Notes: generated by a model not told the origin, from the sequence alone. 59,424 bases of DNA from Candidatus Hydrogenedentota bacterium (GCA_034408725.1 JAWXCN010000124.1:1-59424); one strand, 5' to 3'; counted from the stretch's first letter, positions 1 to 39,088 are shown. Translations and numbers: made by a program.

Positions 1-2
1 AC

Positions 3-248
3 ATCTACATCTACGGCTTCAATACGCGGTCCTGGCGCATTTTCGAGTTGACCGGCGCGAAACAGGAGCTGGTGCTTCGAGAGCACGTCGCGCGCGACGG
101 CCAGCTTTACGAAATGTACGGGTACGGTCTCATCCGGCCCGAGTTTGACAAGTTCCGCGAATTCTTTCTAAAGCGCTTCAAGGGCATCGATCTTCAGACC
201 ATGATTCGCGATCTCAACGAAGATGCCGCGACCGGGTCCTCGACGTAA
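3..248 (+). CDS. RimJ/RimL-type GNAT acetyltransferase, C-terminal part (5' end outside window)
   Basis: The frame is open from position 3: IYIYGFNTRSWRIFELTGAKQELVLREHVARDGQLYEMYGYGLIRPEF. This matches the RimJ/RimL/SpeG tail (N-x-x-S...G...E..LR.H...DG...D...YGLL..E). The TAA stop overlaps the next ATG. Confidence 0.75.
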   Translation: MYIYGFNTRSWRIFELTGAKQELVLREHVARDGQLYEMYGYGLIRPEFDKFREFFLKRFKGIDLQTMIRDLNEDAATGSST

Positions 249-982
249 TGGCCGGGTACATCCTTTGGGCATTGCTCGCCGTACACGTCGTGTATTCATT
301 GCTCTCAAACCGATGGATGCCAGGGGAACAGCCGCAGGGTAAGGTCCACATGATCCATGTCCTCCTTCAAGCGCCATTGCTGTGGGTCGCGGTCTATATC
401 GGCTATCACAGCGACGTGTTTTCGCGTGACCTGATTTCTCCGGTCTACATCTGCATCGGCCTCATCGCCGGACACCTGATCTTTGGCTTCTCCATTCTCG
501 CCACACACCTCTCCTGGCGTGATGCCTGGGCGCATTTTTTTGATTTTGGGCCGCTCTGGAATTTCGCGATGGACAGCCCGGTAGTGTTGACGCGCTTTCT
601 GGGTGTTGCGTTTGCCGAGGAACTGATCTGGCGCGTGGCCGGCCAGGCGCTGGCCATCGAATATTTTGCGCAGTACACAAGCGGCCCCGCGGCGGTTGCG
701 CTGGGCATCGCGGTGATTGCCGCTGGGTTTGTCGTCGTACACAAACACTATTTCGAAAACACCTGGTATATCTCCGCCGAGTTTACTGGCTTTGCGCTCT
801 TGATCGGCGCGCTGTACTTCGCGACCGGCAGCTTTATTCTGGTGATGATCATTCACGCGCTACGCGACATCGAAATCGCGTATCTGGAATATCTGGGCAA
901 AGTTGAAGAACTCGGCGACGAAACGCAGGCCGCGCGCGCGATCGAGCAATCATACCGCCCGCGTCGATTGGAGAACATATGA
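248..982 (+). CDS. CPBP/Abi (CAAX-type) intramembrane glutamic endopeptidase
   Basis: Multi-TM protein with CPBP motifs EExxxR (AEELIWR), FxxxH (FVVVH) and HxxxD (HALRD). Confidence 0.85.
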   Translation: MAGYILWALLAVHVVYSLLSNRWMPGEQPQGKVHMIHVLLQAPLLWVAVYIGYHSDVFSRDLISPVYICIGLIAGHLIFGFSILATHLSWRDAWAHFFDFGPLWNFAMDSPVVLTRFLGVAFAEELIWRVAGQALAIEYFAQYTSGPAAVALGIAVIAAGFVVVHKHYFENTWYISAEFTGFALLIGALYFATGSFILVMIIHALRDIEIAYLEYLGKVEELGDETQAARAIEQSYRPRRLENI

Positions 983-2019
983 GCGCCGCGGCCGCCGTCG
1001 AGTTGTGCGACGTCGACAAGATTTTTCACACGCACCATTTTTTCAAAAAGCACGAGGAAACCGGGAAACGCCGGGTGTACTACCGCAAGACGGTGCACGC
1101 GGTGGACCACGTATCGCTTGAGATCCGGCCTGGAGAAATCCTGGGGTTGCTTGGACGAAACGGCGCTGGCAAAACCACGACGGTGAAAATGATTTCCGGT
1201 TTGGTGAAACCAAATTCGGGGACTGTGCTTGTCGATGGCATGGATGTCGAAAAGAAGCGGTTGAAGGTGTTGCGCAAGATCGGCGTCGTGCTTGAAGGTA
1301 CGCGCACGTGCATCTGGCCGCTGACTCCGCTCGAAAATCTTTCGTATTTCGGAAACCTGCGCGACGTGAAAGGTTCGATGCTCAAGGAACGCAGCCAGGA
1401 ATTGCTCGACTTCATCGGTTTGAAAGATAAAATGAACGTCGAGGTGCGCAAACTTTCGAGGGGTCAAAAGCAGCGTCTGGCAATTTGTATCGCGCTGATA
1501 ACCGACCCGCCGGTGTTGCTGCTGGATGAGCCGACGACCGGTCTCGACGTGCAAAGCAGCCGCGCGATCAAGGATAAGTTGATCGAGATGACGCGCCAGC
1601 GGGGCAAATGCGTGCTCGTGACAACGCACGACATGAACACCGCGCAGGAAGTTTGCGACCGCATCGCCATCGTCCATGACGGAAAACTCGCTACCTGTAA
1701 ATCGACCCGCGACTTGCTGGGCCTGTTTTCGGATCATACCTATCATCTCCACGTTGACAGGGCGCCGGACCTCGCGCCAATACGGGCGTTGCCGGGAGTT
1801 ATCGCATCGGACACGCTTGAGGACGAGGGAACTGGCCCGCGCGTGTCCGTGCGGTTTGAAATTGACGACCGCGCGCGTTCCGCCGCGTTATACGCGGTGA
1901 TGGATCGGCTTCAGCGCGATGGTGTTGTCCTGCGTTCGATTACACATGCGCAACAGAATCTCGAGGACGTGTTCCTGCGCATTACGGAAAAAAGCTTGAA
2001 CATCGGGGGAAAGTCGTAG
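979..2019 (+). CDS. ABC exporter ATP-binding subunit (DrrA/NatA-like)
   Basis: Walker A GRNGAGKTT, signature LSRGQKQR, Walker B LLLDEPT, H-loop TTHD and C-terminal LEDVFL. ATGA overlap with the upstream gene. Confidence 0.95.
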   Translation: MSAAAAVELCDVDKIFHTHHFFKKHEETGKRRVYYRKTVHAVDHVSLEIRPGEILGLLGRNGAGKTTTVKMISGLVKPNSGTVLVDGMDVEKKRLKVLRKIGVVLEGTRTCIWPLTPLENLSYFGNLRDVKGSMLKERSQELLDFIGLKDKMNVEVRKLSRGQKQRLAICIALITDPPVLLLDEPTTGLDVQSSRAIKDKLIEMTRQRGKCVLVTTHDMNTAQEVCDRIAIVHDGKLATCKSTRDLLGLFSDHTYHLHVDRAPDLAPIRALPGVIASDTLEDEGTGPRVSVRFEIDDRARSAALYAVMDRLQRDGVVLRSITHAQQNLEDVFLRITEKSLNIGGKS

Positions 2020-2021
2020 CA

Positions 2022-2948
2022 ATGGGTTTTTTTCTCGTGCTCAAGGCGGAAGTTGTCCGATCCATGATCGTGACGCGGCGCTACTGGTTTGCAACGATGA
2101 CAGCGCTCCTCGTTGCCTGTGTCATGTTCTATGGCTTCATCAACATATTCCTGTCTGGCCTCGGGCTTGGGGCAAGCATGGCGGGCGTCGCGGTCGACCG
2201 CGCGCTCGGACTCGTAATCGGGATATTCGCGTTCAGCATCGTGGGCATGTTCAGCAGCGGCCTGGCTGGCATGGCGCGTAGCGGCGAGCTGGAACAGGTC
2301 TACATGAGTCCACATGGTCTCATCACCAATTTCATGGCGCGATCCGCCGTCGCCACCGTGCTCAGTATCATTACGTGGACCATCCTGCTCATGTTTATCT
2401 CCGCGGCGTTTTCGGAAAAGGGCGATGGCGCGCCCGCGCCAACGCAAACCGCGCATGCCGAAGGCGTGCCGACTGCGACGCCAACGAAGGGGCCCGTCGC
2501 CGACGTCGAGGGCAAGCCCGGCGTGAAGTCGGCGCCTGACGGCAAAATTCACGCAAACCCGGCCGCGGTCTCCGTGCTGTTCTTGCTCACGTATTTCAGC
2601 ATGACGGGATTCGGGTTCATGGTCGGAGGTCTCGTGCTGGTGTTCAAGCAGATTGGCCAGGTCGCCGTAATCTTGCGCATGGCGATGATGGCCGTGGCAT
2701 GGAAGGCCAGCGATGGGCTATATGACCTTCCGCTGGTGCTTCGATCTATCGCGCACGCCGTACCCGTGACGGACGCGGCGATTTGCCTCAAGCTTGTTCT
2801 CCTGCAAAACTACGGCATGCACATTTTCATACACCCGTCGTTCATGTTTCTCCTGTTGAATGTCGCCGTGTGGACGCCCATCGGCCTCGTGTGTTTCAAA
2901 GCCATGGAAAACTGGGCGCGCAGCCGCGGCACGCTGGGTGCATTCTGA
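2022..2948 (+). CDS. ABC-2 type exporter permease
   Basis: About 6 TM helices with GxLE motif (RSGELEQVYMSP) and terminal ARxRGTLG-F. Directly follows the ABC ATPase. Confidence 0.85.
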   Translation: MGFFLVLKAEVVRSMIVTRRYWFATMTALLVACVMFYGFINIFLSGLGLGASMAGVAVDRALGLVIGIFAFSIVGMFSSGLAGMARSGELEQVYMSPHGLITNFMARSAVATVLSIITWTILLMFISAAFSEKGDGAPAPTQTAHAEGVPTATPTKGPVADVEGKPGVKSAPDGKIHANPAAVSVLFLLTYFSMTGFGFMVGGLVLVFKQIGQVAVILRMAMMAVAWKASDGLYDLPLVLRSIAHAVPVTDAAICLKLVLLQNYGMHIFIHPSFMFLLLNVAVWTPIGLVCFKAMENWARSRGTLGAF

Positions 2949-4870
2949 TGGCCCGCGACGCGCTACATCGCTTTGTGGAAAGTGATCGCCGGTTTGCCGT
3001 TGATCCGGAAACGTGTTTCTGTTTTGAATGCGACGAGATTTCCTGGGACGTCCTCGAATATTACCCGCACGCTTCCGTGAACCGAATCTACCATTTGCTT
3101 GGCGAGCGTTACAGCGTCAAGGAACTCGAAGAAGTCATCGGCGAACTGGAATGGTTGCGTTCGACACGCGCAATCCTGCCCGCGCCCAAAAAAGACGACG
3201 TTCAAAAAGAAATCCAGTTCGAGCGCGGACTCAAGCGGGTTTCGATATGCCTGCCGCGCGACGGCACGGAAGCCGCCGTGAAAAAGAAGGGGTGGTTCAG
3301 CCAGGGCGCGACGGTTATGTCGAGTTCGGCGCGCGACATCGGTCACGACGCAATCGCGCTTTTGCTCGGGCGTGCGGGCGAACAGAAAGAATTGCTGATC
3401 GAGTTTGTCGAAGAAGGCCACGTCCACAACCCTGAGCTGGTGGCCGATCTCTGCGCGCACGCGATGAAATGCGGAAAACTCGCGGGCAAAAAACTTACGG
3501 CGTCCGTCCTCGTTCAGAACATAGAAGTCGCAAAACCGCCCGCATCCCTCGAAGGCCATACCATCAGCGCGTCACTCGAATTTACTGAATCCGCGGACAT
3601 ACTCACCCACCTGCGTCCGTTTGCAAAGACGACAGGTGAAGCATTTGCCCGGCTGGTGAAAATCGTTCAGCCGGATGCCCCCGGTGTGCATGGCCGGATT
3701 ACTGTGCGCCCCAATCATCCGAATTTTTCCGGTGTGGTTGAAGAATTGGAAAAGACGGGATTCACGACTATCGATCTCGATGTTGACGGCGCGTACATCG
3801 CCAACCCTACATTGAATCCCGCGGAAATGTTGGATGCGCTGCGCCAGTCGGCCATGTACTACGCGAAGCGACTTCTGCAACACAAGTATTATCGCGTCGA
3901 TCCCATTGCTCCGCTGTTTTATCGCATCTACGACGGTTCGCCCACGCGCCGCACGGACCCCGCCGGCACCAACGAACTCGCCGTCGATGCGGACGGCGGC
4001 GTTTATCCCTCGCGCCGCCTGATGGGTGTCGAAGCCTATAAGCTTGGCACAGTCATGGGCGGCGAAATCGATGAGCACATTCGCGCGCGCTTTGACGAGG
4101 TGGGCGCTTCGACAACAGGAGTGTGCCGGCGCTGCTGGGCGCGCAACCTCTGCGGCGGAGGCAACACCGCCGTGCACCACGCGCTAACAGGATCGCATCG
4201 CACACCGCATGAAGGGTGGTGTGACGCGCAACGCGCATGGATGTCTTCAGCCGTCAGCGCGTTCAATCTGCTGTCATCCGAGGGCGTGAATTTTACGCGG
4301 GTGTACCGCACGCTGACGCGCTCGGCCCGGCCCTCGTTCTTCACGCTGGTGCGCGCGATGTTCCGGATGACCATTGGCATGCGCCCGTGCGAAGAAGCCG
4401 ACGCGCAGATGCTGTCGGACTGGGAGAACTGGAACCCGGCATCGTACTTCCTGTTCACGGAAGGCGGCATTATGCTCACCACGAAATACGATCGTGAAAT
4501 GGACGCATTGCACCCTTCGCCCGGGGAGCAGGAAATGATCCTGATCAAAAAAGACGGCTCGGCCATTGGACTCATAAAGCTCCGGCCCGACCGCTTGCCG
4601 GGCGCCGCACAGGGCTGGCTGTATTTGCATAATGAGGTGGATTACGCCGCGGATGATGTGCGGAAAGGGTTTCGCGCGTTGCTGAAAGAAGCGGGCGGGC
4701 AGCAGGCGATCCGCCGCTTGACGATTCCCGCCGCCGCGTATGAAACGGGCTTGCAAACGTTTTTGGAAGCAATCGGGTTCGCGCGCGAGGGGACGTTGCG
4801 CGAGACTTTATTCGTGCATGATAAATATCACGACGTGCATCTATATGGGATAGCAACCGATCGGTTATAG
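2948..4870 (+). CDS. RRE-like + degenerate radical SAM + SPASM + GNAT fusion protein (640 aa; probable pseudoenzyme)
   Basis: ATG at 2948 overlaps the permease TGA. N-terminus resembles CteB/ScfB RRE domains. SPASM signature AGTNELAVDADGGVYP...LG...CRRCWARNLCGGG...GWC. RimJ/L GNAT tail GFAREGTLRETLFVHDKYHDVHLYGI. No CxxxCxxC motif. Confidence 0.85.
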   Translation: MARDALHRFVESDRRFAVDPETCFCFECDEISWDVLEYYPHASVNRIYHLLGERYSVKELEEVIGELEWLRSTRAILPAPKKDDVQKEIQFERGLKRVSICLPRDGTEAAVKKKGWFSQGATVMSSSARDIGHDAIALLLGRAGEQKELLIEFVEEGHVHNPELVADLCAHAMKCGKLAGKKLTASVLVQNIEVAKPPASLEGHTISASLEFTESADILTHLRPFAKTTGEAFARLVKIVQPDAPGVHGRITVRPNHPNFSGVVEELEKTGFTTIDLDVDGAYIANPTLNPAEMLDALRQSAMYYAKRLLQHKYYRVDPIAPLFYRIYDGSPTRRTDPAGTNELAVDADGGVYPSRRLMGVEAYKLGTVMGGEIDEHIRARFDEVGASTTGVCRRCWARNLCGGGNTAVHHALTGSHRTPHEGWCDAQRAWMSSAVSAFNLLSSEGVNFTRVYRTLTRSARPSFFTLVRAMFRMTIGMRPCEEADAQMLSDWENWNPASYFLFTEGGIMLTTKYDREMDALHPSPGEQEMILIKKDGSAIGLIKLRPDRLPGAAQGWLYLHNEVDYAADDVRKGFRALLKEAGGQQAIRRLTIPAAAYETGLQTFLEAIGFAREGTLRETLFVHDKYHDVHLYGIATDRL

Positions 4871-4885
4871 CGCGTCGCGAACGTA

Positions 4886-5186
4886 CGGGGCTGATGCAGA
4901 CACCCCTTTGGCTGTTTATGGGAGAGGACTTTGTGCGCGCAGGGGTACGGGTAGCGCAGACACCGCTTTGGCTGTTTATGGGCGATGACTTCGTGTATGC
5001 ACGGGTTAAGGGGTAGTCCATCTGCGTTAAACAGCCAAAGCGGCGCCTTGGGGACCGCCGCAGTCCAAATAGGCTTCTTGTTAGAACGTGGTTTTCGGTG
5101 GAGGACTATTTGGACTGCGGTGGCGAAGAGGGTAGGGTTCCGGTTTTGCCGGGAGTGAAAGCGGTAGCGGCTGCTACCTCAGTCCA
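4886..5186. repeat. BIME-like array of REP elements (A/B/C variants)
   Basis: Contains gcagacaccgctttggctgttta (two copies), taaacagccaaagcggcgccttggggaccgccgcagtccaaatagg and ggactatttggactgcggtggcgaag. These units recur at six other intergenic sites. Confidence 0.9.
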
Positions 5187-5204
5187 TATTGGGCATGCCT
5201 CTGC

Positions 5205-5498
5205 CTATTCGAGGTATTTGCTGACCCGGGAGGCGACGAGTTCTACGACAGACTGCAACCGGTGCGCGCCTTGCTCGATACTTTTGCGCGCCTGTTCGAG
5301 GCGCGCCTGGCGTCCTTCATCAACGGCAGATGCCGCTAGGCGCTTGAGTTCGGCGGCGCCTTGGGCTTCACTGCTAAATACAGCGTGATCGCCGTCTCCG
5401 GATATGCCGCGGACCTCGCTACGTTTTGCGGGGCGATCGGGAGTGGGGCTGGCGCCTATTGGGGTGATTAGTCCCGCGATTCCCTGTATGCCTGCCAT
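5205..5498 (-). CDS. flgM: FlgM-like anti-sigma-28 factor
   Basis: 97 aa with D-x-x-x-F-S-S-E-A and RQARLEQARKSIEQGAHRL, resembling FlgM (R..RV..LK..I..G.Y). GGGAGA RBS and an upstream sigma-28 promoter. Confidence 0.7.
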   Translation of the reverse strand: MAGIQGIAGLITPIGASPTPDRPAKRSEVRGISGDGDHAVFSSEAQGAAELKRLAASAVDEGRQARLEQARKSIEQGAHRLQSVVELVASRVSKYLE

Positions 5499-5545
5499 GG
5501 ATAGTTCTCCCTAACGTGCTGCGCGGCATCCTTGCCTGTGAAATA

Positions 5546-5573
5546 CTATCGGCAATCATCACCTTCAACTTTA
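5546..5573 (-). promoter_or_regulatory. Sigma-28 (FliA/SigD) promoter
   Basis: The minus strand reads TAAA-N16-GCCGATAG, about 48 nt upstream of the flgM-like start. Confidence 0.75.
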
Positions 5574-5663
5574 CTGCTTGCAAAAGGTTGTTCGCCTTGT
5601 GGACTGGATGGGCAATAATGGTACATAATTCATAACTTCTTCGCGGGTAAAGGGGTTAGGTGG

Positions 5664-5843
5664 ATGATCACAAGCACGTTCGCACTAATTTATTGCGTGG
5701 TGTATATCGCATCTGTGATTTGGGCGTTTGTGGACGCGCAGAACCGCGGCAAATCGGGTTGCCTGGTGGCGCTTTTGGTGTTGATCCTGGTCTGGCCGGT
5801 CGGCCTTGTCATATGGCTGCTCATTCGTCCCGAACGGGCGTGA
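5664..5843 (+). CDS. Small two-TM membrane protein (PLDc_N-like), 59 aa
   Basis: Hand translation: MITSTFALIYCVVYIASVIWAFVDAQNRGKSGCLVALLVLILVWPVGLVIWLLIRPERA. Shows the W..DA..RG...P.G..W...RP pattern. Below the ORF-track size cutoff. Confidence 0.75.
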   Translation: MITSTFALIYCVVYIASVIWAFVDAQNRGKSGCLVALLVLILVWPVGLVIWLLIRPERA

Positions 5844-5882
5844 TCGGCTTTTGCCCGTGGTGCAATCTACGCGCGTGAGGAA

Positions 5883-7559
5883 TTGAACGGGGGTTGTGTG
5901 AGCAGTGGTGCCGAGCGGCGCAGGCCGGTTCTAATAGTTTTCATCGCCTTGTGTCTTGGCGTCGCCGTGTTCGCCATTACGGAGATCGCGTACAACATTG
6001 TCGCGGAGCGCGCGCTTCCCGGCTATGAAGCAGTTGGCGCCGTTTCGCTCGCGATGGACATCAACAGCTATTATTCATTTATCCATCAGGCTGCGGAAGG
6101 TCATTTCTTTTTCCGCAACAACATGACCCATGAACCCTGCGACGCGGCATTCATCAACGTGCAATGGTGGGCCGTTGGAAAAGGCATGGCATGGTTCGAC
6201 TGGACACCCCGGCGCGCGTTTGTCGTGTGGCGATTCATCGGCTCGTTGGCGCTGATGCTCGGGTTCGCATTTCTCGCGCTCGTGACGTTGCCGCGCACGT
6301 ACCAGCAGCTCGTAGCACTGGTGATGTGCGCATTTGGCGGCGGATTCGGCTGGGTGCTCGCGTTGTTGGGTTCCTTCCACCTCGTGGATACGACCAACAC
6401 ATTCGGCCTACGCAATCCCGCCATGGACCTCATAACGGCCATTCACCCTTTTGGCCAGATTATGAAGAATCCGCATTACAGCCTGCCGCACGGTACGTTT
6501 CTGGCTCTCCTGGCTTTTTTTATAGTTGGTGAACGAACCGGGAGGACCCGCTGGTATGTCGCGTCCGCGGGGGTAGCCATTATCCAGGGGTTGTTCCGGC
6601 CGTATGACACGATCACTATTTGCGCAATGGTTCCTGCGTTTATCGCCGTGGAATACGCGATCACGCGAAAGTTTCAGCTCCGGCAAATAGTGCTGCGCGC
6701 GTTGCCGATGCTTGTCAGCGTGCCGTTGCTAATCTATTACTTCTACATTTTTTCGCTGCATCCCGTCTTTCGGTTTTGGGCCGAGCAGGGGAAACAGCCG
6801 CCTGCGTCATTTTTCTGGCACACAAGTGGCCTTGGACTTGCCGGAGTATTTTTCATCTATCGTATCGCGCGCAGGAAACGGTACCCCTTCACGGCATCAT
6901 GGGAACGAATGTTGGTCGTGCTGACGGCAACCATACTGTTGTTGTACCACGGAAACCATCTGACGCGGGTCCTTTCGTTCTCACCCCAGATCGGAATTCC
7001 GCTGATCCCACCCATGATTATTATCGCGCTAGGCATGCTGCCGCCGCTGGCCGAGCGGTGGCGCAACTCGCGTATCCCAACTCACGTGGGCGCGGTTGCG
7101 GGCTTTCTCATCGTAAATGCGCTAAGCACTCCCCTGTTCCTGACGTGGAACGCGAATATTGGCTCTGTCGAGGCGCGGAACTATATACGCACGACAGACC
7201 TTGATGCTATCGCATGGCTGGCCAAGAATACCGGCCCGGATGATATAGTGCTTTCCAGCGAGTTCATGGGAAGCCGCATCGCGTATTACACGCCGGTTCG
7301 CGTGGCTATGGGCCATTGGGCGCTGACACCAAACGTTCGGCAACTTCGAAAAAAGTTTGAGCGGTTCAAGGAAGGCGAATTACCACGAGACAAGGCCGCC
7401 GAGTTTATCGAAGAAATCCGGCCGCGGTATATCTATGTGTCGAATCCAGACTACGCCGCAAAGCCCTCGTATTTCCGGCGAACCACCGGCGCGGAGCGTG
7501 TGTTCGAGAATAAAGATGTCGCCATTTATGAGGTCGCCCGAGACACGAGCGCGGGGTAA
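5883..7559 (+). CDS. Polytopic membrane protein, GT-C-like glycosyltransferase candidate
   Basis: Many TM segments, early acidic loop (MDINSYYSFIHQA) and a C-terminal soluble domain (DAIAWL...VLS...RYIYV...VFENKDVAIYEV). The start could be GTG 5898. Confidence 0.6.
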   Translation: MNGGCVSSGAERRRPVLIVFIALCLGVAVFAITEIAYNIVAERALPGYEAVGAVSLAMDINSYYSFIHQAAEGHFFFRNNMTHEPCDAAFINVQWWAVGKGMAWFDWTPRRAFVVWRFIGSLALMLGFAFLALVTLPRTYQQLVALVMCAFGGGFGWVLALLGSFHLVDTTNTFGLRNPAMDLITAIHPFGQIMKNPHYSLPHGTFLALLAFFIVGERTGRTRWYVASAGVAIIQGLFRPYDTITICAMVPAFIAVEYAITRKFQLRQIVLRALPMLVSVPLLIYYFYIFSLHPVFRFWAEQGKQPPASFFWHTSGLGLAGVFFIYRIARRKRYPFTASWERMLVVLTATILLLYHGNHLTRVLSFSPQIGIPLIPPMIIIALGMLPPLAERWRNSRIPTHVGAVAGFLIVNALSTPLFLTWNANIGSVEARNYIRTTDLDAIAWLAKNTGPDDIVLSSEFMGSRIAYYTPVRVAMGHWALTPNVRQLRKKFERFKEGELPRDKAAEFIEEIRPRYIYVSNPDYAAKPSYFRRTTGAERVFENKDVAIYEVARDTSAG

Positions 7560-8474: not shown

Positions 8475-9308
8475 ATGCCGGGAAATATACGGGCGATTGA
8501 CGTTTGGGCACAGCCCGCGCGGGCGGATGCGTTCAAGCTGCTGCCGGAGGTCGGACGTCTCTTCCAACAGTCCGGAAATGCGTGGGTGCTTGAAAAAGGA
8601 ATGAGCACGGAAGAAATCGTCGCAATGATGGATCGTGGCGGCGTCGAAAAGATGTTCATCTGCGCATGGTGCCGGCCCGGAAACTGGATCTATACCAACG
8701 ACGAAGTCGCGGAGATGGTCCGCGCGTTTCCGGACCGCTTCGTGGGAGTGGCGACTGTTGACCTCGAGAAACCGGTGCACGCTGTGCGGGAACTGGATCG
8801 CGCGGTCAACGAGCTGGGTTTCAAAGCGCTGCGCGTGGTTCCGTGGCTCTGGAACCGCCCGCCGAATGACAAGCTGTATTATCCCTTGTACGTGAAATGC
8901 ATTGAACTGAATATCCCCTTCTGTACGCAGGTCGGACATACCGGTCCGTTGATGCCGTCTGAAGTTGGACGGCCAGTGCCCTACCTTGATGAAGTCGCGC
9001 TGACGTTTCCCGACCTGCGCATCGTTGCGGGCCACATTGGTTATCCTTGGACTGACGAAATGATCGGGCTCGCCTGGAAACACAAGAATGTCTATATCGA
9101 CACGTCGGCGTGGCTGCCGCGATATTATCCGTTTCAATTGCAGCAATACATGCAAACGTATGGGAAGCATAAGGTGCTGTTTGGAAGCAATTTTCCACAG
9201 CTTTTGGCGGACAAGTGCGCGCAGGACGCGCGGCAACTCGGTTTGCCCGAGGATGTCGAGCGAATGTTTCTGCGAGACAATGCAATAACTGTTTTTGGGT
9301 TGGAATGA
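8475..9308 (+). CDS. Amidohydrolase_2 family protein
   Basis: FPDRFVG, CTQVGHTGP, IVAGHIGYPW, NVYIDTSA, KVLFGSNFP. Confidence 0.9.
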   Translation: MPGNIRAIDVWAQPARADAFKLLPEVGRLFQQSGNAWVLEKGMSTEEIVAMMDRGGVEKMFICAWCRPGNWIYTNDEVAEMVRAFPDRFVGVATVDLEKPVHAVRELDRAVNELGFKALRVVPWLWNRPPNDKLYYPLYVKCIELNIPFCTQVGHTGPLMPSEVGRPVPYLDEVALTFPDLRIVAGHIGYPWTDEMIGLAWKHKNVYIDTSAWLPRYYPFQLQQYMQTYGKHKVLFGSNFPQLLADKCAQDARQLGLPEDVERMFLRDNAITVFGLE

Positions 9309-11830
9309 CAAACCGGATTGGAACGGATTCGGAAACGGAAAATCAAGCGTCCTGGTCGCCCAGTGCGACGGAGGGTACGACGCGCGCATTCGCGCAGGTA
9401 GTCCTGCCTATAGCCTTGGATCAGGCTTTTACCTATTCCGTACCGGCGTCTCTGCGGCACCGGGTTGCCATGGGCATGCGCGTTGTCGTGCCGTTTCAGA
9501 AGCGGGTCGAAACCGGCGCCGTGGTCGGGCTTTCGGATTCTTCCAGCGTGGAAGGCATACGCGCGATCATCGATCTGCCAGATGATGGCCCAATCTTTTC
9601 CGCCGAGCTGTTGGACTTGTGCAAATGGATGTCCGAGTATTACTGCTGCGCTTGGGGCGAAGCGCTTGCCTCCGCCGTGCCCGCCGGCATCGCGATCCGG
9701 TCCAAGAAACGCTATGCGCTGAACCTGGCCGAACTTGGCCCCGGTCGATATACCGAACGGCAGCGAAAAGTCATCGCGGAATTGCACGGCCGCGGACCGC
9801 TTTCGGAAAAACAATTGGCGAAAACGGTCGGCGCGACTGCCCTCAGCAATACGCTGCGCACACTCGAAGCGCGCGGCATCATTCGCGCGGAATCCGTCGC
9901 TATCGACGCGGGCGTTTCCATTGCGACCGAAACCTGGGTGCGGTTGAACGAACTTGCGATCCCCTCGCCGGAAGAACTGGAGCGCATGCAGCGCCGTGCC
10001 CCGCGCCAGGCCGCTGTGCTGCTCGATTTGGTGAACAACGAACCGGAACGCATGGCGTCATCTTTGTACGAACGGCACGGCGTGGATTCTTCGGTGCTGC
10101 GGTTGCTGGAACAGCGCGGCGCCATCGAGCGATATGAACGTGAATTCTATCGTGCGCCGAACCTTTCCTCGGATGGACGTTCGAACCTCAAGCATGATCT
10201 CAATGGCGATCAGCGCGCGGCGTTTGACGCGATCACTGCCGCGATGGACGTATCGCAGTTTCAGCCGTTTCTCTTGCAGGGCATCACCGGCAGCGGCAAA
10301 ACCGAGGTCTATCTACAAGCCATCGAGCATGCGCTGAAACTGGAGCGGACCGCGATCATTCTCGTGCCGGAAATTTCGCTGACGCCGCAGACCGTCGGGC
10401 GGTTCAAATCGCGCTTCGATGCGGACATCGCAGTGTTGCACAGTGGCCTCGGCGCGGGCGAACGTTACGACGAGTGGCGTCGCGCGCAACGCGGCGAAGT
10501 GCGCATCGTCGTCGGCGCGCGCTCGGCTATCTTCGCGCCGCTGCCGCGCCTCGGTGTCATTGTCGTTGACGAAGAACACGACAACTCGTACAAGCAAAGC
10601 GAAACGCCACGTTACCACGCGCGGGACGTCGCGATCATGCGCGCGAAACTGAACAACGCGGTCTGCGTGCTCGGTTCCGCGACGCCCTCCATCGAGTCGT
10701 ATCACAACAGCGAATCGGGCAAGTCTGTCCGCATCGAACTGCACCGCCGCGCGACCAATGCCCTGCTGCCGGAAGTCGAACTCGTCGACATGCGCACCGA
10801 GAACCGCGAAGCCGGCATGGAGATCATGGTGTCGCGCAAGCTGGAAACGGAAATTGGCGAGCGACTTCGCACGGGCGATCAGGTGTTGTTGTTGCTGAAC
10901 CGCCGCGGTTTCGCGCCGTTCGTGTTGTGCCCGAAATGTGGCTGGTGTGCGCAGTGCCCGGATTGCAATGTGACGTTGACGTATCACGCGAAGGGCGCGT
11001 TCCTGAGCTGCCACTATTGCAACGGACGCCGCGGCGTCCCACTCGTGTGCGACGAATGCCACTTCAATCCGCTGCTGTACCTCGGCATGGGCACGCAAAA
11101 AGTCGAGGACTACTTGCAACAGGCGTTTCCCGATGCGCGTATCGAGCGCATGGACGCGGACACGACCTCCGGCAAGGGCGGGCACGCAAAAATTCTCGGA
11201 CGCCTGGCTTCGGGCGAGATCGACGTGCTCGTCGGGACGCAGATGATCGCGAAAGGACACGACTACCCGGGCGTGACGCTGGTCGGCGTGATCAACGCGG
11301 ACTCCGGCCTGCGCATGCCGGACTTCCGCGCAGCCGAAACGACGTTTCAACTGCTCACCCAAGTCGCGGGCCGCGCCGGCCGCGGCGATAAACCGGGCCA
11401 CGTCATCATCCAAACGTTCAGACCCAACCACTACGCCGTCGTCGCTGCCGCAAAACACGATTACGCAGCGTTCTTCGCGCGCGAAATCGCCGAACGCAAC
11501 AATGCGCAGTATCCTCCGTTCCGGCGCATGGCAAACCTTATGATCGAATGCGAAGACCCCGAACGCGCCGAACGTTGCGCCGCAATCCTCCACCGCGTCG
11601 CCCGCGAACAAATCGCCGCACTAAACTTCGACGGTCTCGAAACCCTCGGCCCGTCCCCCGCAACCATCCGGCGCATCAAAAAACTCTACCGCTGGAACCT
11701 TGGAATGTTGTCGAAAAGCGCAAAGAGGTTGAATACTCTCAGCCGCGCCATTCGCGATGCATACGCGAAAGACGAGCGAACGGGGAGAACGAAGTTGAAA
11801 ATTGATTTGGACCCGTATGGGATGTATTGA
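9305..11830 (+). CDS. priA: Primosomal protein N' (replication restart helicase)
   Basis: GITGSGKTEVY, LVPEISLTPQ, DEEHD, LGSATPS, NRRGF, four CxxC pairs, GTQMIAKGHD, QVAGRAGR, terminal IDLDPY. ATGA overlap at 9305. Confidence 0.97.
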   Translation: MTNRIGTDSETENQASWSPSATEGTTRAFAQVVLPIALDQAFTYSVPASLRHRVAMGMRVVVPFQKRVETGAVVGLSDSSSVEGIRAIIDLPDDGPIFSAELLDLCKWMSEYYCCAWGEALASAVPAGIAIRSKKRYALNLAELGPGRYTERQRKVIAELHGRGPLSEKQLAKTVGATALSNTLRTLEARGIIRAESVAIDAGVSIATETWVRLNELAIPSPEELERMQRRAPRQAAVLLDLVNNEPERMASSLYERHGVDSSVLRLLEQRGAIERYEREFYRAPNLSSDGRSNLKHDLNGDQRAAFDAITAAMDVSQFQPFLLQGITGSGKTEVYLQAIEHALKLERTAIILVPEISLTPQTVGRFKSRFDADIAVLHSGLGAGERYDEWRRAQRGEVRIVVGARSAIFAPLPRLGVIVVDEEHDNSYKQSETPRYHARDVAIMRAKLNNAVCVLGSATPSIESYHNSESGKSVRIELHRRATNALLPEVELVDMRTENREAGMEIMVSRKLETEIGERLRTGDQVLLLLNRRGFAPFVLCPKCGWCAQCPDCNVTLTYHAKGAFLSCHYCNGRRGVPLVCDECHFNPLLYLGMGTQKVEDYLQQAFPDARIERMDADTTSGKGGHAKILGRLASGEIDVLVGTQMIAKGHDYPGVTLVGVINADSGLRMPDFRAAETTFQLLTQVAGRAGRGDKPGHVIIQTFRPNHYAVVAAAKHDYAAFFAREIAERNNAQYPPFRRMANLMIECEDPERAERCAAILHRVAREQIAALNFDGLETLGPSPATIRRIKKLYRWNLGMLSKSAKRLNTLSRAIRDAYAKDERTGRTKLKIDLDPYGMY

Positions 11831-12023
11831 AAAAGACTCGCAACCGGCGGTTCAATCCCAAATGGGGTCCACGGCATTTTTATTAAAGTCTCTTAGTTTT
11901 AGAAATGTCCACGACTTCGCCGGACGCGGCGAAAAATGCATCCTGCGTATCCGGTTGCTACTATGGTATTCGCATTATCGGCGAGTCAGAAAAAATTGGT
12001 CATGGCGTTCGGGGGACACTTCT

Positions 12024-14432
12024 ATGCGCGGGTTTGCAATGGTCGTAATGTGCTCACTATCTGCGCCGGTTGCATTGGCACAGGCCCTATACACGGTGCA
12101 GGGTGTCGAGCCGCAGCCAGTGATTGCTCAGGCGTTGCGCTTGAGCGATGCATTGACTTTTCTTGGTCACGGTCTCAGCTCCGAGGATATCAGCCGGCTC
12201 AAGACGCTTGCGGACGCGGCTCTTACCGAAGAGACGCCGGCTTCCGTGCAGGCGATACTCGATCCCTATTGCATTGCGCTGGTGCATATTAACCCGGAAA
12301 TGCGCGTCAGGGTGTTGCAGGGCCCGGCGAGGTCTATCCTCATGCAAAACGGCTGGACCAGTTTTCTTGTAAAAGTCCACAATGAAGCCAGGACACGCGC
12401 CGAACTCATACCCGCAAGTCCAAACGCCGATCCACTGTTGCACCGTTCGACCAGCGCGCCGGAACCCAAGCCGGAGAACTTGATATCGCCGGGGCAGGTG
12501 GCGCAACGGTTTCTCGAATTGAAAATGTACCATCGCCGGCCTATGAACGCCTTGCTGTCCGGGTTCCCGCTCGAGTACGCGATCGTGCAGGTATACACGA
12601 AAGACGCGGGTGCGCGGGAGGCCAAACTCGGCTTCAACATTGGCCAGGGAACGCAGGACCTTGGTTTCCGCGATCACCTCGATATCCTGTTTGACTGCAA
12701 ACCCGCGGTGAAAGTAGTGCTGCGCGTGAAAGACGACGGCGGCAAACCCACGATGGCATCTTTCGTGTTCTCGGACAATGTCGAGCGCACGGAGCAGGAA
12801 CAGGATTACGCGGGCAGTATCAAGCCCGATTACAGGCTGCAAATGGCGCAGAATGTACCCCCTGGCGCCTTGCTCACGAAATCCCAGCGGTTCACGGGGA
12901 TTTACCCCTTGCCTGCGCGCCGCCTTGCTGAGGAAGACGAATTCCCCGATTTTTTTTTCCAGCCACAGATTTATCGCGCAGACGGGGAACACGTCATGTT
13001 GCCCCCCGGTGAGTACCGCGTTGAATACACCCGCGGGCCCGAATACATCCCGAAAGAAACGACGATAGTCGTGCCGGAAGGCGTGATGGAGCACGAAGAA
13101 TCGTTCAAGCTCGAGCGCTGGATTCACCTCGCCAAACTCGGATGGTACAGCGCCGATCATCACGTACATGGCGGCGGGTGCTCGCACTACGAAAGCCCGC
13201 AGGCCGGCGTAACACCGGAATCAATGATGCGGCAGGCGCTCGGCGAAGACTTGAATGTTACCTGCGTGTTGAGTTGGGGTCCGTGCTGGTACCACCAGAA
13301 ATCGTATTTCAAAGGTTCAAACGATCCCCTGTCTACGCCAAACAACATTATGCGCTACGACGTCGAAGTCTCAGGCTTTCCTTCGAGTCACGCCGGGCAT
13401 CTCTGCCTGTTGCGGCTAAAGGAAGACGACTACACCAACACCACGAAGATCGAAGAATGGCCAAGTTGGACCATGCCCGTCCTGCAATGGGGCCAACAAC
13501 AGGATGCAATCGTTGGGTATTCGCATTCGGGCTGGGGGCTGGAGCCGCTCGAGCCGACAACCGAGCTGCCGAATTACGTTATGGCAAAGTTCGACGGCAT
13601 CGGCGCCAACGAATACATCGTGACGGGTCCGTTAGGCGCCTGCGATTTCATCAGCGCGGGCGATACGCCGTATCTCTGGGAATTGAACATCTGGTACCAC
13701 ACGCTGAACACCGGCGTCACCACTCGCATCAGCGGCGAGACTGATTTCCCCTGCATCTACGACGAGCGCGTCGGCATCGCGCGCAGCTACGCGCCCATGA
13801 AAGGCGCGCTGGATTTCGACGCCTATGTCGGCAAACTGAAGACTGGCGAAAATTACGTATGCGACGGTAAATCCCATATCCTCGATTTCCGTGCTGATGG
13901 ACTCGTCATGGGTCACGATGACAGCACGCTAAAACTGGATGCTCCGCGGACCGTGCAGGTTAGCGCGCGAGTCGCTGCCTATCTGCCGGAGCAGCAGGAC
14001 GCCACCGGCGAGGCCCTTGCCAAGCAACAGCCGAACGGGGCGCCCTATTGGCACATCGAAAAGTCGCGCATTGGCACGACGCGCACCGTGCCGGTTGAAC
14101 TGTTGGTAAACGGCAAACCCGTTGCGCGCGACGTCATCGAAGCCGACGGCAAATTGCGCAAAGTGAAATTTGATTGTTCGATAGACCAATCAAGCTGGAT
14201 CGCATTGCGCATTCTGCCCAGCAGCCATACAAACCCGATTTTTGTGACAGTGGCCGGCAAACCCATTCGTGCATCGAAGAAAAGCGCCGAATGGTGCCGC
14301 GCCGCGGTAGACCGCTGCTGGCAAATGAAAGAACCCCAAATCCGTGAAGCGGAACGCCCCGCGGCGAAAACCGCCTATGACGCCGCCCGCGCCTATTATG
14401 ACTCGGCCATCGCTGAGGCTACCGGGGAATAG
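12024..14432 (+). CDS. Secreted CehA/McbA-family (PHP-like) metallohydrolase
   Basis: Signal peptide MRGFAMVV...ALAQ, then RGPEY, GWYSADHHVH, GYSHSGWG, SGETDFPC, SWIALR...HTNPIFV. Confidence 0.8.
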   Translation: MRGFAMVVMCSLSAPVALAQALYTVQGVEPQPVIAQALRLSDALTFLGHGLSSEDISRLKTLADAALTEETPASVQAILDPYCIALVHINPEMRVRVLQGPARSILMQNGWTSFLVKVHNEARTRAELIPASPNADPLLHRSTSAPEPKPENLISPGQVAQRFLELKMYHRRPMNALLSGFPLEYAIVQVYTKDAGAREAKLGFNIGQGTQDLGFRDHLDILFDCKPAVKVVLRVKDDGGKPTMASFVFSDNVERTEQEQDYAGSIKPDYRLQMAQNVPPGALLTKSQRFTGIYPLPARRLAEEDEFPDFFFQPQIYRADGEHVMLPPGEYRVEYTRGPEYIPKETTIVVPEGVMEHEESFKLERWIHLAKLGWYSADHHVHGGGCSHYESPQAGVTPESMMRQALGEDLNVTCVLSWGPCWYHQKSYFKGSNDPLSTPNNIMRYDVEVSGFPSSHAGHLCLLRLKEDDYTNTTKIEEWPSWTMPVLQWGQQQDAIVGYSHSGWGLEPLEPTTELPNYVMAKFDGIGANEYIVTGPLGACDFISAGDTPYLWELNIWYHTLNTGVTTRISGETDFPCIYDERVGIARSYAPMKGALDFDAYVGKLKTGENYVCDGKSHILDFRADGLVMGHDDSTLKLDAPRTVQVSARVAAYLPEQQDATGEALAKQQPNGAPYWHIEKSRIGTTRTVPVELLVNGKPVARDVIEADGKLRKVKFDCSIDQSSWIALRILPSSHTNPIFVTVAGKPIRASKKSAEWCRAAVDRCWQMKEPQIREAERPAAKTAYDAARAYYDSAIAEATGE

Positions 14433-18418: not shown

Positions 18419-20146
18419 GTGCGGCACGCAATAACGTTGTATTTGCGTTCCGGGTGGCCGGTTTTTGTTTTGGCGGGATTGACCGTTTTTGTAGTTAGCC
18501 CTTACGGCGAGTTCCCCCTGAACGACGACTGGGTCTACTGGAAAATGGTGAACGGGTTGGTCAACGAGGGTCAACTCGCGGTTCATCCTTATAGCAGCGC
18601 CTACGCGGCCACGCAATCGTTGATCGTTGCTCCGCTCGCCTTGTTGTTCGGGTTGTCGTTTACGCTCCTTCGGGTGACTACACTGGTAGCGGCGTTGGGT
18701 GTATTGCTCGCGACGATTTGGTGTGGGCGGTTGGTGGGGTTGAGTCGGAACCGGGCCACACTGGCCGCGCTTATCGTTCTAATCAATCCGATCTTCATCA
18801 ACATGTCCTACTCGTTTATGACGGAAATACCCTTTCTTGCCTTGTCGATGCTATCCATGGCGTTCTATCTCAAGGCCATCCGCAAACCTGGGCCAGGGCT
18901 GATTGCGTTGGGCACTGCGTTCGCCGTGCTTGCGTTCTTGAATCGCCAGTATGGACTACTGATTACGCTCGCCTTTTTCATCACCATCGTCGTCTACAAA
19001 CGCACGGCTAACCCGCACGCCGGGCTGCGCAATGCGTTCGCCGTCGCGCATCCCTGGATCATCTGCGTACCGTGCGCATACTACCTTGCGATGACTTCCC
19101 AGACCGACCTAATCTACTACGCCGTCGCAAAGGGAGACTGGAGCGTATACCTGCTTCCGCATCGTGTCGCAACGGTAATCGCAAAATCCATTCTGTACTG
19201 CGGGCTGTTCCTGCTTCCCGTGACCCTGCCCTTGCTCGCATCAATGCTAACGGGCCGTCTGCGGTGGGCGCGCGCGCAGTGGGGCGTTTTCGCGATTGTT
19301 GGGGGCGCGCTGCTGATTTATACACTAACGAGCGGCGGGCGCCTGCCAAACCTTCACAATATCATCCGGGATTGCGGGCTCGGCCCCTTGCTGCTGCACC
19401 CGGAAAACGATGCCCCCAACTGGACTCCCGTCGAGTTGGGCGGCATCGTATGGTGGCCGGTCACGCTATTGTCCGTTCTCTCATCGGCGGTTTTGGGCGG
19501 ACTCGCCGTGGGGTTTCCACAAAAAGCGAGATCATTCGCAAGCGGTCCCTTGCGGGTCCGCTATTGCCAACGTCTTTTCCTGTTCTGCGCGGGTGCGCTC
19601 ATGATCCTCGTCCCGGCAAACGGAATCCAGCCGGTGTACCATGACCGTTACATTTTGCCGGCGATTCCCATGCTTGCCATCCTGGCGGTTGGCGCGTTGC
19701 CGTTTCGCAGCGCCGGTTGGCTTGGAACCGCCGCGGGCGCGGCCCCCGCGCTGGCGTTGTACGTCTTCAGTATCTTCGGCCAGCAGGATTATATGGCGTG
19801 GAACGATGCACGGTGGCGCGCAATTGATTTGTTGCGCACGAAACACGCGATGGCAAATGAATTTATCGATGGCGGATATGAATTTCACGGGTTGCACTCG
19901 CGCAAATGGGCACTAACGGCAAACCAGGCGACAAACCGTGAAACAAAGGAAGATCGCCGCTTCGTGGCCCGTGAACGGGTTTGCCTCGTTGCCATGCGGT
20001 CGCGGAAAAGTTTTCAGCCGGTGTTAACGGTCCCCTATTTTTCGTGGTTAGGCTTCAAGACGCGTGACATAGTGGTATTGCGCCCCGGCGCTGTGAGTCC
20101 ACCCGAATCAAGATTCCACCTCGAAAGCATTCGGGACAACGAGTAG
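18419..20146 (+). CDS. ArnT/PMT-like (GT39/GT83, GT-C fold) glycosyltransferase
   Basis: PLNDDWVY, NPIF...SFMTEIPF, LNRQYG, DRYILP, IDGGYEF; polytopic. Confidence 0.8.
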   Translation: MRHAITLYLRSGWPVFVLAGLTVFVVSPYGEFPLNDDWVYWKMVNGLVNEGQLAVHPYSSAYAATQSLIVAPLALLFGLSFTLLRVTTLVAALGVLLATIWCGRLVGLSRNRATLAALIVLINPIFINMSYSFMTEIPFLALSMLSMAFYLKAIRKPGPGLIALGTAFAVLAFLNRQYGLLITLAFFITIVVYKRTANPHAGLRNAFAVAHPWIICVPCAYYLAMTSQTDLIYYAVAKGDWSVYLLPHRVATVIAKSILYCGLFLLPVTLPLLASMLTGRLRWARAQWGVFAIVGGALLIYTLTSGGRLPNLHNIIRDCGLGPLLLHPENDAPNWTPVELGGIVWWPVTLLSVLSSAVLGGLAVGFPQKARSFASGPLRVRYCQRLFLFCAGALMILVPANGIQPVYHDRYILPAIPMLAILAVGALPFRSAGWLGTAAGAAPALALYVFSIFGQQDYMAWNDARWRAIDLLRTKHAMANEFIDGGYEFHGLHSRKWALTANQATNRETKEDRRFVARERVCLVAMRSRKSFQPVLTVPYFSWLGFKTRDIVVLRPGAVSPPESRFHLESIRDNE

Positions 20147-24884: not shown

Positions 24885-24997
24885 GTTTCCCCCCGGCGGA
24901 TGGCACGTTTCGCATCATCCTATACGATCTTGCCTCGGCTGGGGAGCAGTTCCTATACTGCGCGACGGTTGCTAGCCATTACACCGGAGCGATATAC

Positions 24998-39084: not shown

Positions 39085-39088
39085 GTGT

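Follow-up and report, generated by a model that had tools for sequence, protein, structure and literature searches.

A radical SAM-SPASM homologue without catalytic motifs, fused to a GNAT fold, in a putative precursor-peptide operon of Hydrogenedentota

The window analyzed here was the whole 59,424-nucleotide stretch of DNA from Candidatus Hydrogenedentota bacterium (GCA_034408725.1 JAWXCN010000124.1:1-59424). The gene in question, referred to as the target, occupied positions 2948..4870 of the plus strand as an open frame of 640 codons plus a stop, and one base of its ATG belonged also to the stop codon TGA of the ABC-2 permease gene immediately upstream (TGATG at 2946-2950). The product began with a putative leader-binding domain resembling the recognition element (RRE) of pathways for peptides that are made by ribosomes and modified after translation (RiPPs) (residues 1-90; 2948..3217), which was aligned to the N-terminus of CteB and contained HRF at residues 7-9 and the acidic helix ELEEVIGELEWL at residues 59-70. 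Within this domain, a Cys triad, C23-x-C25-x2-C28 (CFCFEC; 3014..3031), was followed by D29 (CFCFECD) on the strand predicted to pair with the leader. Next came a degenerate partial TIM barrel of the radical S-adenosylmethionine (SAM) type (residues 91-330; 3218..3937), a SPASM domain (residues 331-457; 3938..4318) and a C-terminal GNAT-fold domain (GNAT-C; residues 474-640; 4367..4867), all on the plus strand. Comparison of the protein sequences confirmed the target as a ScfB/CteB-type radical SAM-SPASM homologue that is evidently stripped of catalysis, keeps the ligands of the second auxiliary cluster (AuxII) and carries a fused GNAT fold.

The loss of the catalytic motifs was traced by phmmer alignment to the CteB chain 5wgg_A. 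The CxxxCxxC site of CteB faced RVSICLPRDGTE (residues 97-108), and this former place of the motif (3236-3271) held no Cys motif. The GGEP position read EFVEEG (residues 152-157; 3401-3418). The first SPASM Cys of CteB corresponded to RTDPAG (residues 335-340), and YPC corresponded to VYPS (residues 352-355). The CxxCx5Cx3C segment lay opposite CRRCWARNLCGGGN (residues 393-406), and the last Cys was opposite GWC (residues 423-425). Aligning the target by MAFFT to two bona fide ScfB enzymes gave the same placements. Relative to active ScfB, the SAM-binding motifs were replaced, FFGGEP by EFVEEG, TTNG by LVQN and SLDG or SIDG by SLEF, and none of the GGE, TNG and SxDG positions was invariant within the family of the target. 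Moreover, Pfam Radical_SAM (PF04055) had no match in the target at E <= 0.1. The seven-Cys SPASM motif is given as CX9-15GX4C-gap-CX2CX5CX3C-gap-C in the available text of PMC6231123, and the target read D337-X12-G350-X4-S355 ... C393-X2-C396-X5-C402-X3-N406 ... C425 on this motif. Four of the seven Cys were present (C393, C396, C402 and C425), G350 was kept, and the positions that ligate the substrate-binding first auxiliary cluster (AuxI) were replaced by D337 (3956-3958), S355 (4010-4012) and N406 (4163-4165). The four retained residues (4124..4222) stood opposite the corresponding AuxII cysteines of CteB. A previous reading made from the sequence alone (the sequence-only reading) had quoted these motifs, placed the AuxII ligands at 4124-4222 and proposed a CteB/ScfB layout; each motif was found at the residues it gave, the AuxII span was exact for C393-C425, and CteB was the top solved relative by both sequence and fold.

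The family matches and the predicted fold were in line with this assignment. The phmmer match between the target and 5wgg_A had an E value of 1.9e-17 and joined residues 5-429 of the query to residues 6-439 of the chain. The SPASM model TIGR04085 scored 36.1 bits over residues 339-421 against a cut-off of 27, and 40.5 bits in the genome search. The best full-length NCBIfam model was TIGR03974 (SCIFF maturase), which covered residues 7-436 with 73.8 bits and did not reach its cut-off of 425. An AlphaFold2 monomer model was built from a 32-sequence alignment, for which 32 of the 120 listed homologues were chosen across the identity range. The mean predicted local distance difference test score (pLDDT) was 80.5; it was above 90 over residues ~130-330 of the barrel, where strands and helices alternated, and the model was poor at residues 19-28, at residues 106-124 (where the cluster loop used to be and where family members differ by many indels) and in the linker at 458-471. 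The three top Foldseek matches in the Protein Data Bank (PDB) were CteB (E ~1e-15), and GNATs came next (E ~1e-9). In the VIA alignments, residues 20-443 of the model matched CteB with a Z of 24.7 and a root-mean-square deviation (rmsd) of 5.0 over 365 aligned residues. Other barrels were also matched, ChlB with a Z of 19.3 and anSME with a Z of ~19 (19.1), so that the values for the barrel region spanned 19-25. The modelled likeness of barrel and SPASM domain to CteB is far beyond chance, and the partial TIM barrel expected at residues ~90-330 was recovered in the predicted structure.

The distribution of the gene was examined among its relatives. A word-indexed search yielded 309 relatives; among the best 120 of them, nearly all were 634-674 aa long with 49-85% identity to the target, and those that were named were nearly all labelled Hydrogenedentes or Hydrogenedentota. 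The gene was present in 123 of 135 Hydrogenedentota genomes (E <= 1e-30) and in 83 of the 86 high-quality genomes, with identity across the phylum ranging from 26% to 89%. The genomes without it clustered in one family (f7), 9 of whose 14 genomes lacked the gene. The target gene, or part of it, was also detected in 9 DNA runs labelled microbial-mat metagenome, two of which may be where the DNA came from, and no RNA run was listed for it. Several contigs with the gene and its operon (e.g., L001, L012, L019, L030, L047, L049 and L051; P0058) bore the names 'uncultured Nitrospiraceae/Nitrospirales' or 'Bathyarchaeia' in their records. Placeholder names or mistakes in binning are a more probable cause than genuine occurrence outside the phylum.

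The Cys residues were counted in an alignment of 150 full-length members (590-700 aa), which were taken from the first 164 protein ids after 14 had been excluded by length. No member (0/150) had C-x3-C-x2-C within its first 220 residues. C393, C396 and C402 were each conserved in 150/150 members, and C425 was conserved in 149/150. At the AuxI positions, residue 337 was D in 146 members, C in 3 and E in 1; residue 355 was S in 101, C in 26 and another residue in 23; and residue 406 was C in 18/150, with T, S, N, A and others in the rest. Selection was evaluated with four same-genus orthologues (73-89% identical). Over the whole gene, the proportion of nonsynonymous differences (pN) was 0.07-0.18 and that of synonymous differences (pS) was 0.63-0.72. 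The ratio of nonsynonymous to synonymous rates (dN/dS) was 0.02-0.18 across the RRE, barrel, SPASM and GNAT domains, values that are rough upper-range estimates because synonymous sites were near saturation (pS 0.54-0.82; dS was undefined in one domain comparison). These ratios indicate purifying selection on every domain, the dead barrel included, and the dead radical SAM protein has almost certainly been kept under selection.

The preference of the sequence-only reading for selection over decay was thus borne out by the presence of the gene in 123/135 genomes, by a pN far below pS in each domain and by the lack of any close homologue with an intact CxxxCxxC among the 150 members. That the target might be a recently decayed pseudogene of an active maturase is suggested by the missing motifs and nothing further, and the probability of this explanation is practically negligible. 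Recent decay was rejected because the 640-codon frame was intact, the identity spanned 26-89%, CxxxCxxC was missing throughout the census, pN lay far below pS, and an internal stop occurred in only two of the listed matches. These two matches (G051:C80:1801-2982 and G053:C3:61542-62723; genus g53) held one in-frame TAG each, which could be a sequencing error, a pseudogene or recoding.

The claim that only AuxII is kept held for the main clade and failed for 3 of the 150 members, which were deep-branching and retained all seven SPASM Cys. These three proteins (P0156, P0158 and P0164) were GNAT-fused, had no CxxxCxxC and were 24-29% identical to the target in the MAFFT alignment; P0156 was encoded inside the same operon in G001, the sole genome of family f14. 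It is likely, on an unrooted comparison of these sequences, that the SAM cluster was lost and the GNAT fold was fused first and that AuxI was lost later. The pattern would represent a natural case in which clusters were given up one by one, first the SAM cluster, then AuxI and never AuxII, with strong selection throughout, and it is relevant to the long-running debate on what the two auxiliary clusters do. The retention of AuxII where radical chemistry no longer needs it speaks for a structural function or an independent redox function. AuxII in the target is most likely a structural, possibly redox-sensing [4Fe-4S] cluster.

The C-terminal domain was compared with solved GNATs. GNAT-C was aligned with RimL-type, SpeG and AAC(6') enzymes over ~160 residues with VIA Z values of 15-16.7 and rmsd values of 2.6-3.2. 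The best matches were the RimL-like 1z9u and SpeG (Z 16.7, rmsd 2.6-2.7), and the lasso-peptide acetyltransferase 9iy3 was matched with a Z of 15.9. The GNAT assignment rests mainly on this predicted fold. A precomputed match to Acetyltransf_4 (PF13420) was found in 25 of the 120 listed homologues. GNAT-C was distantly related to GNAT-A, a stand-alone GNAT of the same operon (BLASTP E 5e-5, 23% identity), and had no match to GNAT-B, another stand-alone unit, in the sequence comparison. According to the alignments to solved GNATs, the loop between beta4 and alpha3 (DYAADDVRKGF; 4640-4672, plus strand) was non-canonical. Its family consensus was D-Y-A-S-x-x-V-R-K-G-F, and the non-canonical loop was common to GNAT-C and GNAT-A.

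The genes upstream of the target, all on its strand, began in the window with the 3' end of GNAT-B (Acetyltransf_3 type; 3..248), which was followed by a CPBP/CAAX-type intramembrane protease (Rce1-like; 248..982), an ABC transporter ATPase (DrrA-like; 979..2019) and the ABC-2 type permease (2022..2948). The protease, a candidate leader or tail peptidase, matched PF02517 with an E value of 6e-8 (33.3 bits; cut-off 22.4) and contained EELIWR, FVVVH and HALRD; the motifs that define CPBP proteins are of the EExxxR, FxxxH and HxxxD types. The ATPase matched Pfam ABC_tran with an E value of 3e-32, and its score of 239.7 bits with TIGR01188 was below the cut-off of 312. The permease matched Pfam ABC2_membrane_3 with 32.2 bits (cut-off 31.6) and stood immediately upstream of the target in every family locus with upstream DNA. 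Synteny was evaluated by tblastn of the window proteins against 54 family loci. GNAT-B, the CPBP protease, the ABC ATPase, the ABC-2 permease and the target occurred in this order in 36 of the 54 loci; 16 loci were cut by contig ends and 2 deviated. For 10 tested ORFs of the window that lie downstream of the target, tblastn gave no match to any family locus, and therefore the operon ends with the target gene. A promoter and terminator scan of 4700-6000 gave nothing above the shuffle expectation, and the single terminator-like site lay inside the ORF.

The first half of the operon was located outside the window. The last 99 nt of contig C7 of the same genome (L079:2968-3066) were exactly identical to window positions 1-99, and the GNAT-B frame, whose 5' part lies at the end of C7, ran through the join; therefore, C7 and the window contig are neighbours. 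Two precursor genes, GNAT-A and a third stand-alone GNAT, GNAT-B', were on C7. GNAT-A (~190 aa, Acetyltransf_4) and GNAT-B (~210 aa, Acetyltransf_3) lie farther upstream in the operon, and GNAT-B' occurs in some lineages, this genome included, which gives four GNAT-fold units per operon here. GNAT-B and GNAT-B' were members of Acetyltransf_3 with 41.6-46.9 bits, the value of 46.9 being that of a full-length GNAT-B homologue. The acyltransferase partners that had been proposed from the sequence are thus represented by two or three stand-alone GNATs in the operon.

The other proposed partner, a radical SAM enzyme to which the protein would relay electrons, found no support. In this explanation, an active radical SAM maturase encoded at another locus would receive the precursor from the target, whose part would be that of an electron relay or adaptor. 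AuxII is thought to serve as an electron conduit in SPASM enzymes, and the genome encodes other SPASM proteins on contigs C235 and C191. However, the conserved operon was free of radical SAM genes in all 36 complete loci, the other SPASM genes were unlinked to the operon, and the target protein matched only its own gene in its genome at E <= 0.001. A relay function is accordingly highly improbable.

Small ORFs with a common N-terminus were observed near the operon. One to five ORFs of 39-70 aa that started with M-[KR]-H lay upstream of GNAT-A on the same strand and shared the leader start M-[KR]-H-[ILV]-[KR]-x-[ILV]-[ST]. As a control, ORFs starting with [ATG/GTG/TTG]-[K/R]-H were counted in 36 loci. 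The zone 3.9-5.6 kb upstream of the target held 83 such ORFs in 57,035 nt (1.46 per kb), compared with 22 in 258,105 nt elsewhere on the same strand (0.085 per kb) and 22 in 315,140 nt on the opposite strand (0.070 per kb). At least one ORF of this type was found in 28 of the 33 loci with sufficient flank, and of the other 5 loci, 4 were in genomes that encoded type-A peptides at another place. One of these places, at ~680-1760 of L089 (G136:C49:23728-26838), was an unlinked array of five precursor genes, with one type-B gene, one type-C gene, one M-H-H variant and two type-A genes. The enzyme operon of this genome had no adjacent peptides, so that the precursor cassette is able to move without the enzymes.

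The peptide statistics were obtained from 57 of the 61 peptides, after four near-duplicates had been omitted. At leader positions that were not used for selection, position 4 was I, L or V in 51/57, position 7 was I, V, L or M in 57/57, and position 8 was S or T in 55/57. Type-A peptides, which had a WRAW core and a KKNE tail in an alignment of 26 peptides, occurred in nearly every locus; type B was a hydrophobic helix ending in AKE, and type C contained two Cys. A Lys was found within the last 16 residues of 54/57 peptides, most often 5-7 residues from the end, and the Lys frequency was 0.091 in the tails and 0.017 in the cores. Cys occurred in 14/57 peptides. The type-A peptide was better conserved than the enzyme and was present in 109 of the 135 phylum genomes (E <= 1e-6). 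Both the peptide and the target gene were found in 108 genomes, the target only in 15, the peptide only in 1 (which was 88% complete) and neither in 11, plain counts that carry no statistics since the genomes are related.

The relationship of these peptides to known precursors was also explored. A scan of 10 operon peptides against NCBIfam gave no peptide family and only two chance-level matches (E 0.15-0.17), and TIGR03973, the SCIFF precursor family with a six-Cys core, had no match to them at E <= 10. The operon peptides shared only about the first 8 leader residues with true SCIFF peptides. A 57-peptide profile searched against PDB chains for a co-crystallized CteA fragment gave a single chance-level match (E 1.1). 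Among 23 outgroup loci, which contained active radical SAM-SPASM relatives from other phyla, only 2 had a small M-[KR]-H ORF within 1.2 kb upstream. Both (L071 and L075) were true SCIFF systems, with maturases of 456.9 and 547 bits (TIGR03974 cut-off 425) and SCIFF peptides of 69.9 and 58.8 bits (TIGR03973 cut-off 50). Furthermore, TIGR03974 was the top family, below its cut-off in every case, for 8 of the 10 nearest active relatives in a representative library. The Hydrogenedentota operon thus looks like a SCIFF-type system in which the leader/RRE pair survived and the core peptide and the chemistry changed.

The small ORFs may also be considered outside a RiPP pathway, as exported membrane-active or bacteriocin-like peptides whose N-terminus is a mere export signal, with the fusion protein acetylating some other amine of the cell envelope or a polyamine. 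Cassettes of CPBP and ABC-2 proteins are typical of bacteriocin immunity and export, and SpeG polyamine acetyltransferases were among the best fold matches of GNAT-C. This explanation is very unlikely, however, because the peptides start like the leaders of true SCIFF precursors and the SCIFF maturase is the nearest active relative of the target, because the leader-contacting residues of the RRE are invariant and because peptide and enzyme co-occur.

Leader binding was modelled with residues 1-460 of the target (32-row alignment) and the type-A peptide of its own genome (26-row alignment). The complex score was 0.86 (0.86, 0.85 and 0.87 in the individual runs), compared with 0.01 for the best of three controls, a high value that may reflect memory or likeness because the CteB-CteA complex (5WGG) has already been solved. 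The benchmark for this score was reached by 58/80 solved complexes and by 2/110 mismatched pairs, and the runs shared at least 55% of their contacts. The peptide contacted residues 16, 23-29, 31-32, 59-75, 327-330 and 436-450 of the target in the model. In the RRE, H7, R8, F9, D29, E59, E62, E66, W69, L70 and R71 were invariant (32/32), and D29, E62 and E66 faced the basic leader residues K2, H3 and R5 in the complex. In the available text of PMC8326336 and PMC6231123, the CteA leader is described as a strand added next to beta3 and alpha3 of CteB, and the modelled docking of the type-A leader followed this strand-addition mode. According to these predictions, the target probably binds M-K-H leaders. 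The leader-binding scaffold of the sequence-only reading therefore stood in silico, with the RRE kept, SCIFF-type leaders in the operon and complex scores of 0.86 against 0.01, and the binding itself is a modelled one.

The Cys triad lies on this modelled binding strand. The sequence-only reading had noted neither the triad nor the precursor peptides, nor that the operon begins on another contig. The triad was present in 145/150 members, was cut to C25/C28 in two divergent members and was missing exactly in the three members that retain AuxI, which read FVFE there. The pLDDT of the triad region was below 50 in the monomer model, and in the complex model the region touched residues 3-8 of the peptide. 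The anti-correlation with AuxI carries no statistical weight because it is probably a single evolutionary event. One explanation for the triad is cryptic radical or redox chemistry, in which C23, C25 and C28, perhaps with D337, would form a new site-differentiated Fe-S cluster in place of AuxI or the SAM cluster, so that the protein would remain enzymatically active towards the bound peptide. A cluster with a single open iron takes three Cys. The distribution of the triad among the members is consistent with such a replacement, as is the conservation of D337 in 146/150 members, and residues 327-330, beside D337, contacted the same stretch of the peptide in the complex model. In the available text of PMC6231123, PqqE is an earlier example of a SPASM cluster with an Asp ligand. 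However, the SAM-binding motifs are gone, the side chains of a triad in a beta-strand alternate between its faces, the anti-correlation with AuxI counts as one event, and most peptides have no Cys. Cryptic chemistry at the triad is consequently regarded as very unlikely.

Considered as a whole, the target may be a SCIFF-maturase descendant without radical chemistry that serves as a leader-docking scaffold and presents peptides for acylation, cleavage and export, a reading to which we assign a probability of roughly 0.6. In this mechanism, the leader would be captured by the RRE, where it would form an extra beta-strand alongside CFCFECD and the acidic helix at residues 59-70, as in the complex model. 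The tethered core would then be presented to the fused GNAT-fold domain, to the stand-alone GNATs or to both for N-acylation, and the near-universal Lys 5-7 residues from the peptide C-terminus would be the best candidate for the acylation site. Judging from the gene content, the CPBP protease may trim the peptide, and the ABC-2 transporter may export it. Acyl transfer to the peptides is a tentative choice for the chemistry, with odds somewhat short of even, and it is doubtful that the fused GNAT itself is an active transferase.

Several observations weigh against the docking-scaffold reading. Acetyltransf_4 (PF13420) scored 16.4 bits with the whole protein and 20.6 bits with the domain alone, below the cut-off of 24.3. 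GNAT motif A, the loop for the acyl-CoA pyrophosphate, is R/Q-x-x-G-x-G/A, and in low-scoring phmmer alignments, the motif-A glycines of 1nsl and 8q6u faced Y566, A567, D569-570 and V571 of GNAT-C; GNAT-C may therefore be unable to bind acyl-CoA and may be inert. In the complex model, only residues 1-10 of the peptide were placed, with a partner pLDDT of about 54 (at least 53), and the score is subject to the solved precedent mentioned above. The invariance of M, K/R and H in the leader is by construction because these residues were the search criterion. Moreover, 15 of the 123 target-bearing genomes had no type-A match at E <= 1e-6. The operon is also not absolutely fixed, since L014 had no detectable CPBP protease and GNAT-B, and L046 had no ATPase, CPBP protease and GNAT-B, with upstream DNA present in both. 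The Cys triad is the main feature left unexplained, as a pure scaffold does not account for it.

Alternatively, the target might act as a peptide chaperone, as a sensor or in immunity, with no catalysis of its own. In that case, neither the barrel nor the GNAT fold would be active, the M-K-H peptides would only be bound or sequestered, and all chemistry would fall to the stand-alone GNATs. Such binding might protect the producer, time export or, by way of AuxII and the triad, make peptide release responsive to iron or redox state. GNAT-C without canonical motif-A glycines and under the Pfam cut-off fits this explanation, as do the canonical Acetyltransf_3 scores of GNAT-B and GNAT-B', the modelled RRE binding and the position of the triad on the binding strand. 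However, the dN/dS of GNAT-C (0.05-0.08) showed it to be as constrained as the rest of the protein. In addition, E483, D485, E493, Y514, R516, E517, H522, Y566 and R618 were invariant polar residues in the 32-sequence alignment, and so many of them are more typical of an active or ligand site than of a spacer. An entirely inert protein is thus considered unlikely.

The docking-scaffold reading can be extended to a phylum-wide, SCIFF-derived pathway in which radical chemistry was swapped for acyl transfer. The dead maturase would be a platform for up to four GNAT units that acylate the near-C-terminal Lys of several families of amphipathic peptides, and the triad gained at the loss of AuxI would form, together with AuxII, a metal, Fe-S or redox switch that makes capture and release dependent on iron or redox state. 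The full combination is speculative and, taken as a whole, quite unlikely.

Radical SAM-SPASM maturases are central to RiPP discovery, and mining tools treat each homologue as an enzyme. In the target, a maturase with an RRE would have been reused as a pseudoenzyme scaffold and joined to a GNAT fold. Hydrogenedentota is a candidate phylum with very few cultured members. The near-universal presence of the system and a type-A peptide that is better conserved than its enzyme suggest a core physiological peptide rather than a sporadic antibiotic, and the type-A product may be a signal, an envelope component or a cofactor-like product. A similar core-peptide argument has been made for SCIFF in Clostridia, as far as the available text of PMC8326336 goes. 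The peptides, the GNATs and the scaffold are small and easy to express, and the proposal is directly testable.

The remainder of the window contained genes of other kinds. Five long ORFs (558-876 aa) had no Pfam family at the thresholds used, located at 5883-7559, 11802-14432 and 18419-20146 on the plus strand and at 36817-39219 and 52497-55106 on the minus strand. Ordinary genes were found at 9215-11830, 24878-26803 and 30473-32206 on the plus strand and at 41260-42873 and 47044-49512 on the minus strand; they comprised PriA helicase, M3 oligopeptidase F, gamma-glutamyltranspeptidase, an AMP-binding acyl-CoA ligase and a PSCyt1/PSCyt2/PSD1 (DUF1549/DUF1553) planctomycete-type cytochrome protein. 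The acyl-CoA ligase was 36 kb from the target and showed no sign of supplying the GNATs.

The target was finally compared with known systems. CteB/ScfB (PDB 5WGG/5WHY; TIGR03974) has the same layout of RRE, partial TIM barrel and SPASM domain and shares the AuxII ligands, and true SCIFF precursors have the same M-[KR]-H-I-[KR] leader start as the peptides of the target. In contrast to CteB/ScfB, the target has no CxxxCxxC, GGE or AuxI ligands, scores 73.8 bits against a cut-off of 425, and contains an extra GNAT fold and the Cys triad on beta3. Most of the precursors of its operon lack the Cys-rich core of the SCIFF system, and the operon adds GNATs, a CPBP protease and an ABC exporter.

The architecture had not been recognized as described in the sequence-only reading. 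Text searches found no description of the architecture or of the Hydrogenedentota system, most subscription journals and supplements being outside their scope, whereas a dead radical SAM protein in a peptide system does have a precedent. The curated family TIGR04150 ('pseudo_rSAM_GG'), which we take to be linked to the GG-Bacteroidales peptide system, is likewise a radical SAM homologue without cluster-binding Cys in a peptide-modification context. The target differs from it in lineage, domain set and taxon, and it is not a member, with no match at E <= 0.1 (cut-off 250 bits). A TIGR04150 search of its own genome gave nothing at the place of the gene and a weak 20-bit match on another contig.

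The likeness of the GNAT fold extends to other peptide-modifying enzymes. Selidamide maturases are GNAT acyltransferases for which the N-acylation of ribosomal peptides at the side chains of Lys or Orn is described in the available text of PMC8784127. These maturases and the iterative lasso-peptide acetyltransferase 9iy3 have a GNAT fold like GNAT-C, and the peptides of the target have a near-C-terminal Lys. However, in the texts available for them, the selidamide and lasso GNATs are stand-alone enzymes with NHLP/Nif11 or lasso substrates and none is fused to an RRE-bearing dead radical SAM protein, whereas motif A of the target is non-canonical.

Elp3 combines a radical SAM domain and a GNAT/KAT domain, with an active radical SAM center acting on tRNA and without an RRE or a SPASM domain. 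As in the target, a single chain contains first a barrel of the radical SAM type and then a GNAT fold, and the likeness is at the superfamily level. One lead from the Atlas was a Bacillota cluster of 465 aa (Radical_SAM 100%, Fer4_12 86%, Acetyltransf_1 71%; feature score 0.85), which is possibly an Elp3-like active fusion of radical SAM and GNAT domains. PqqD-like RRE adaptors, either stand-alone or fused, present leaders to partner enzymes. These adaptors are leader-binding modules without chemistry of their own, as proposed for the target, whereas the target retains a 370-residue body of degenerate barrel and SPASM domain with an Fe-S site.

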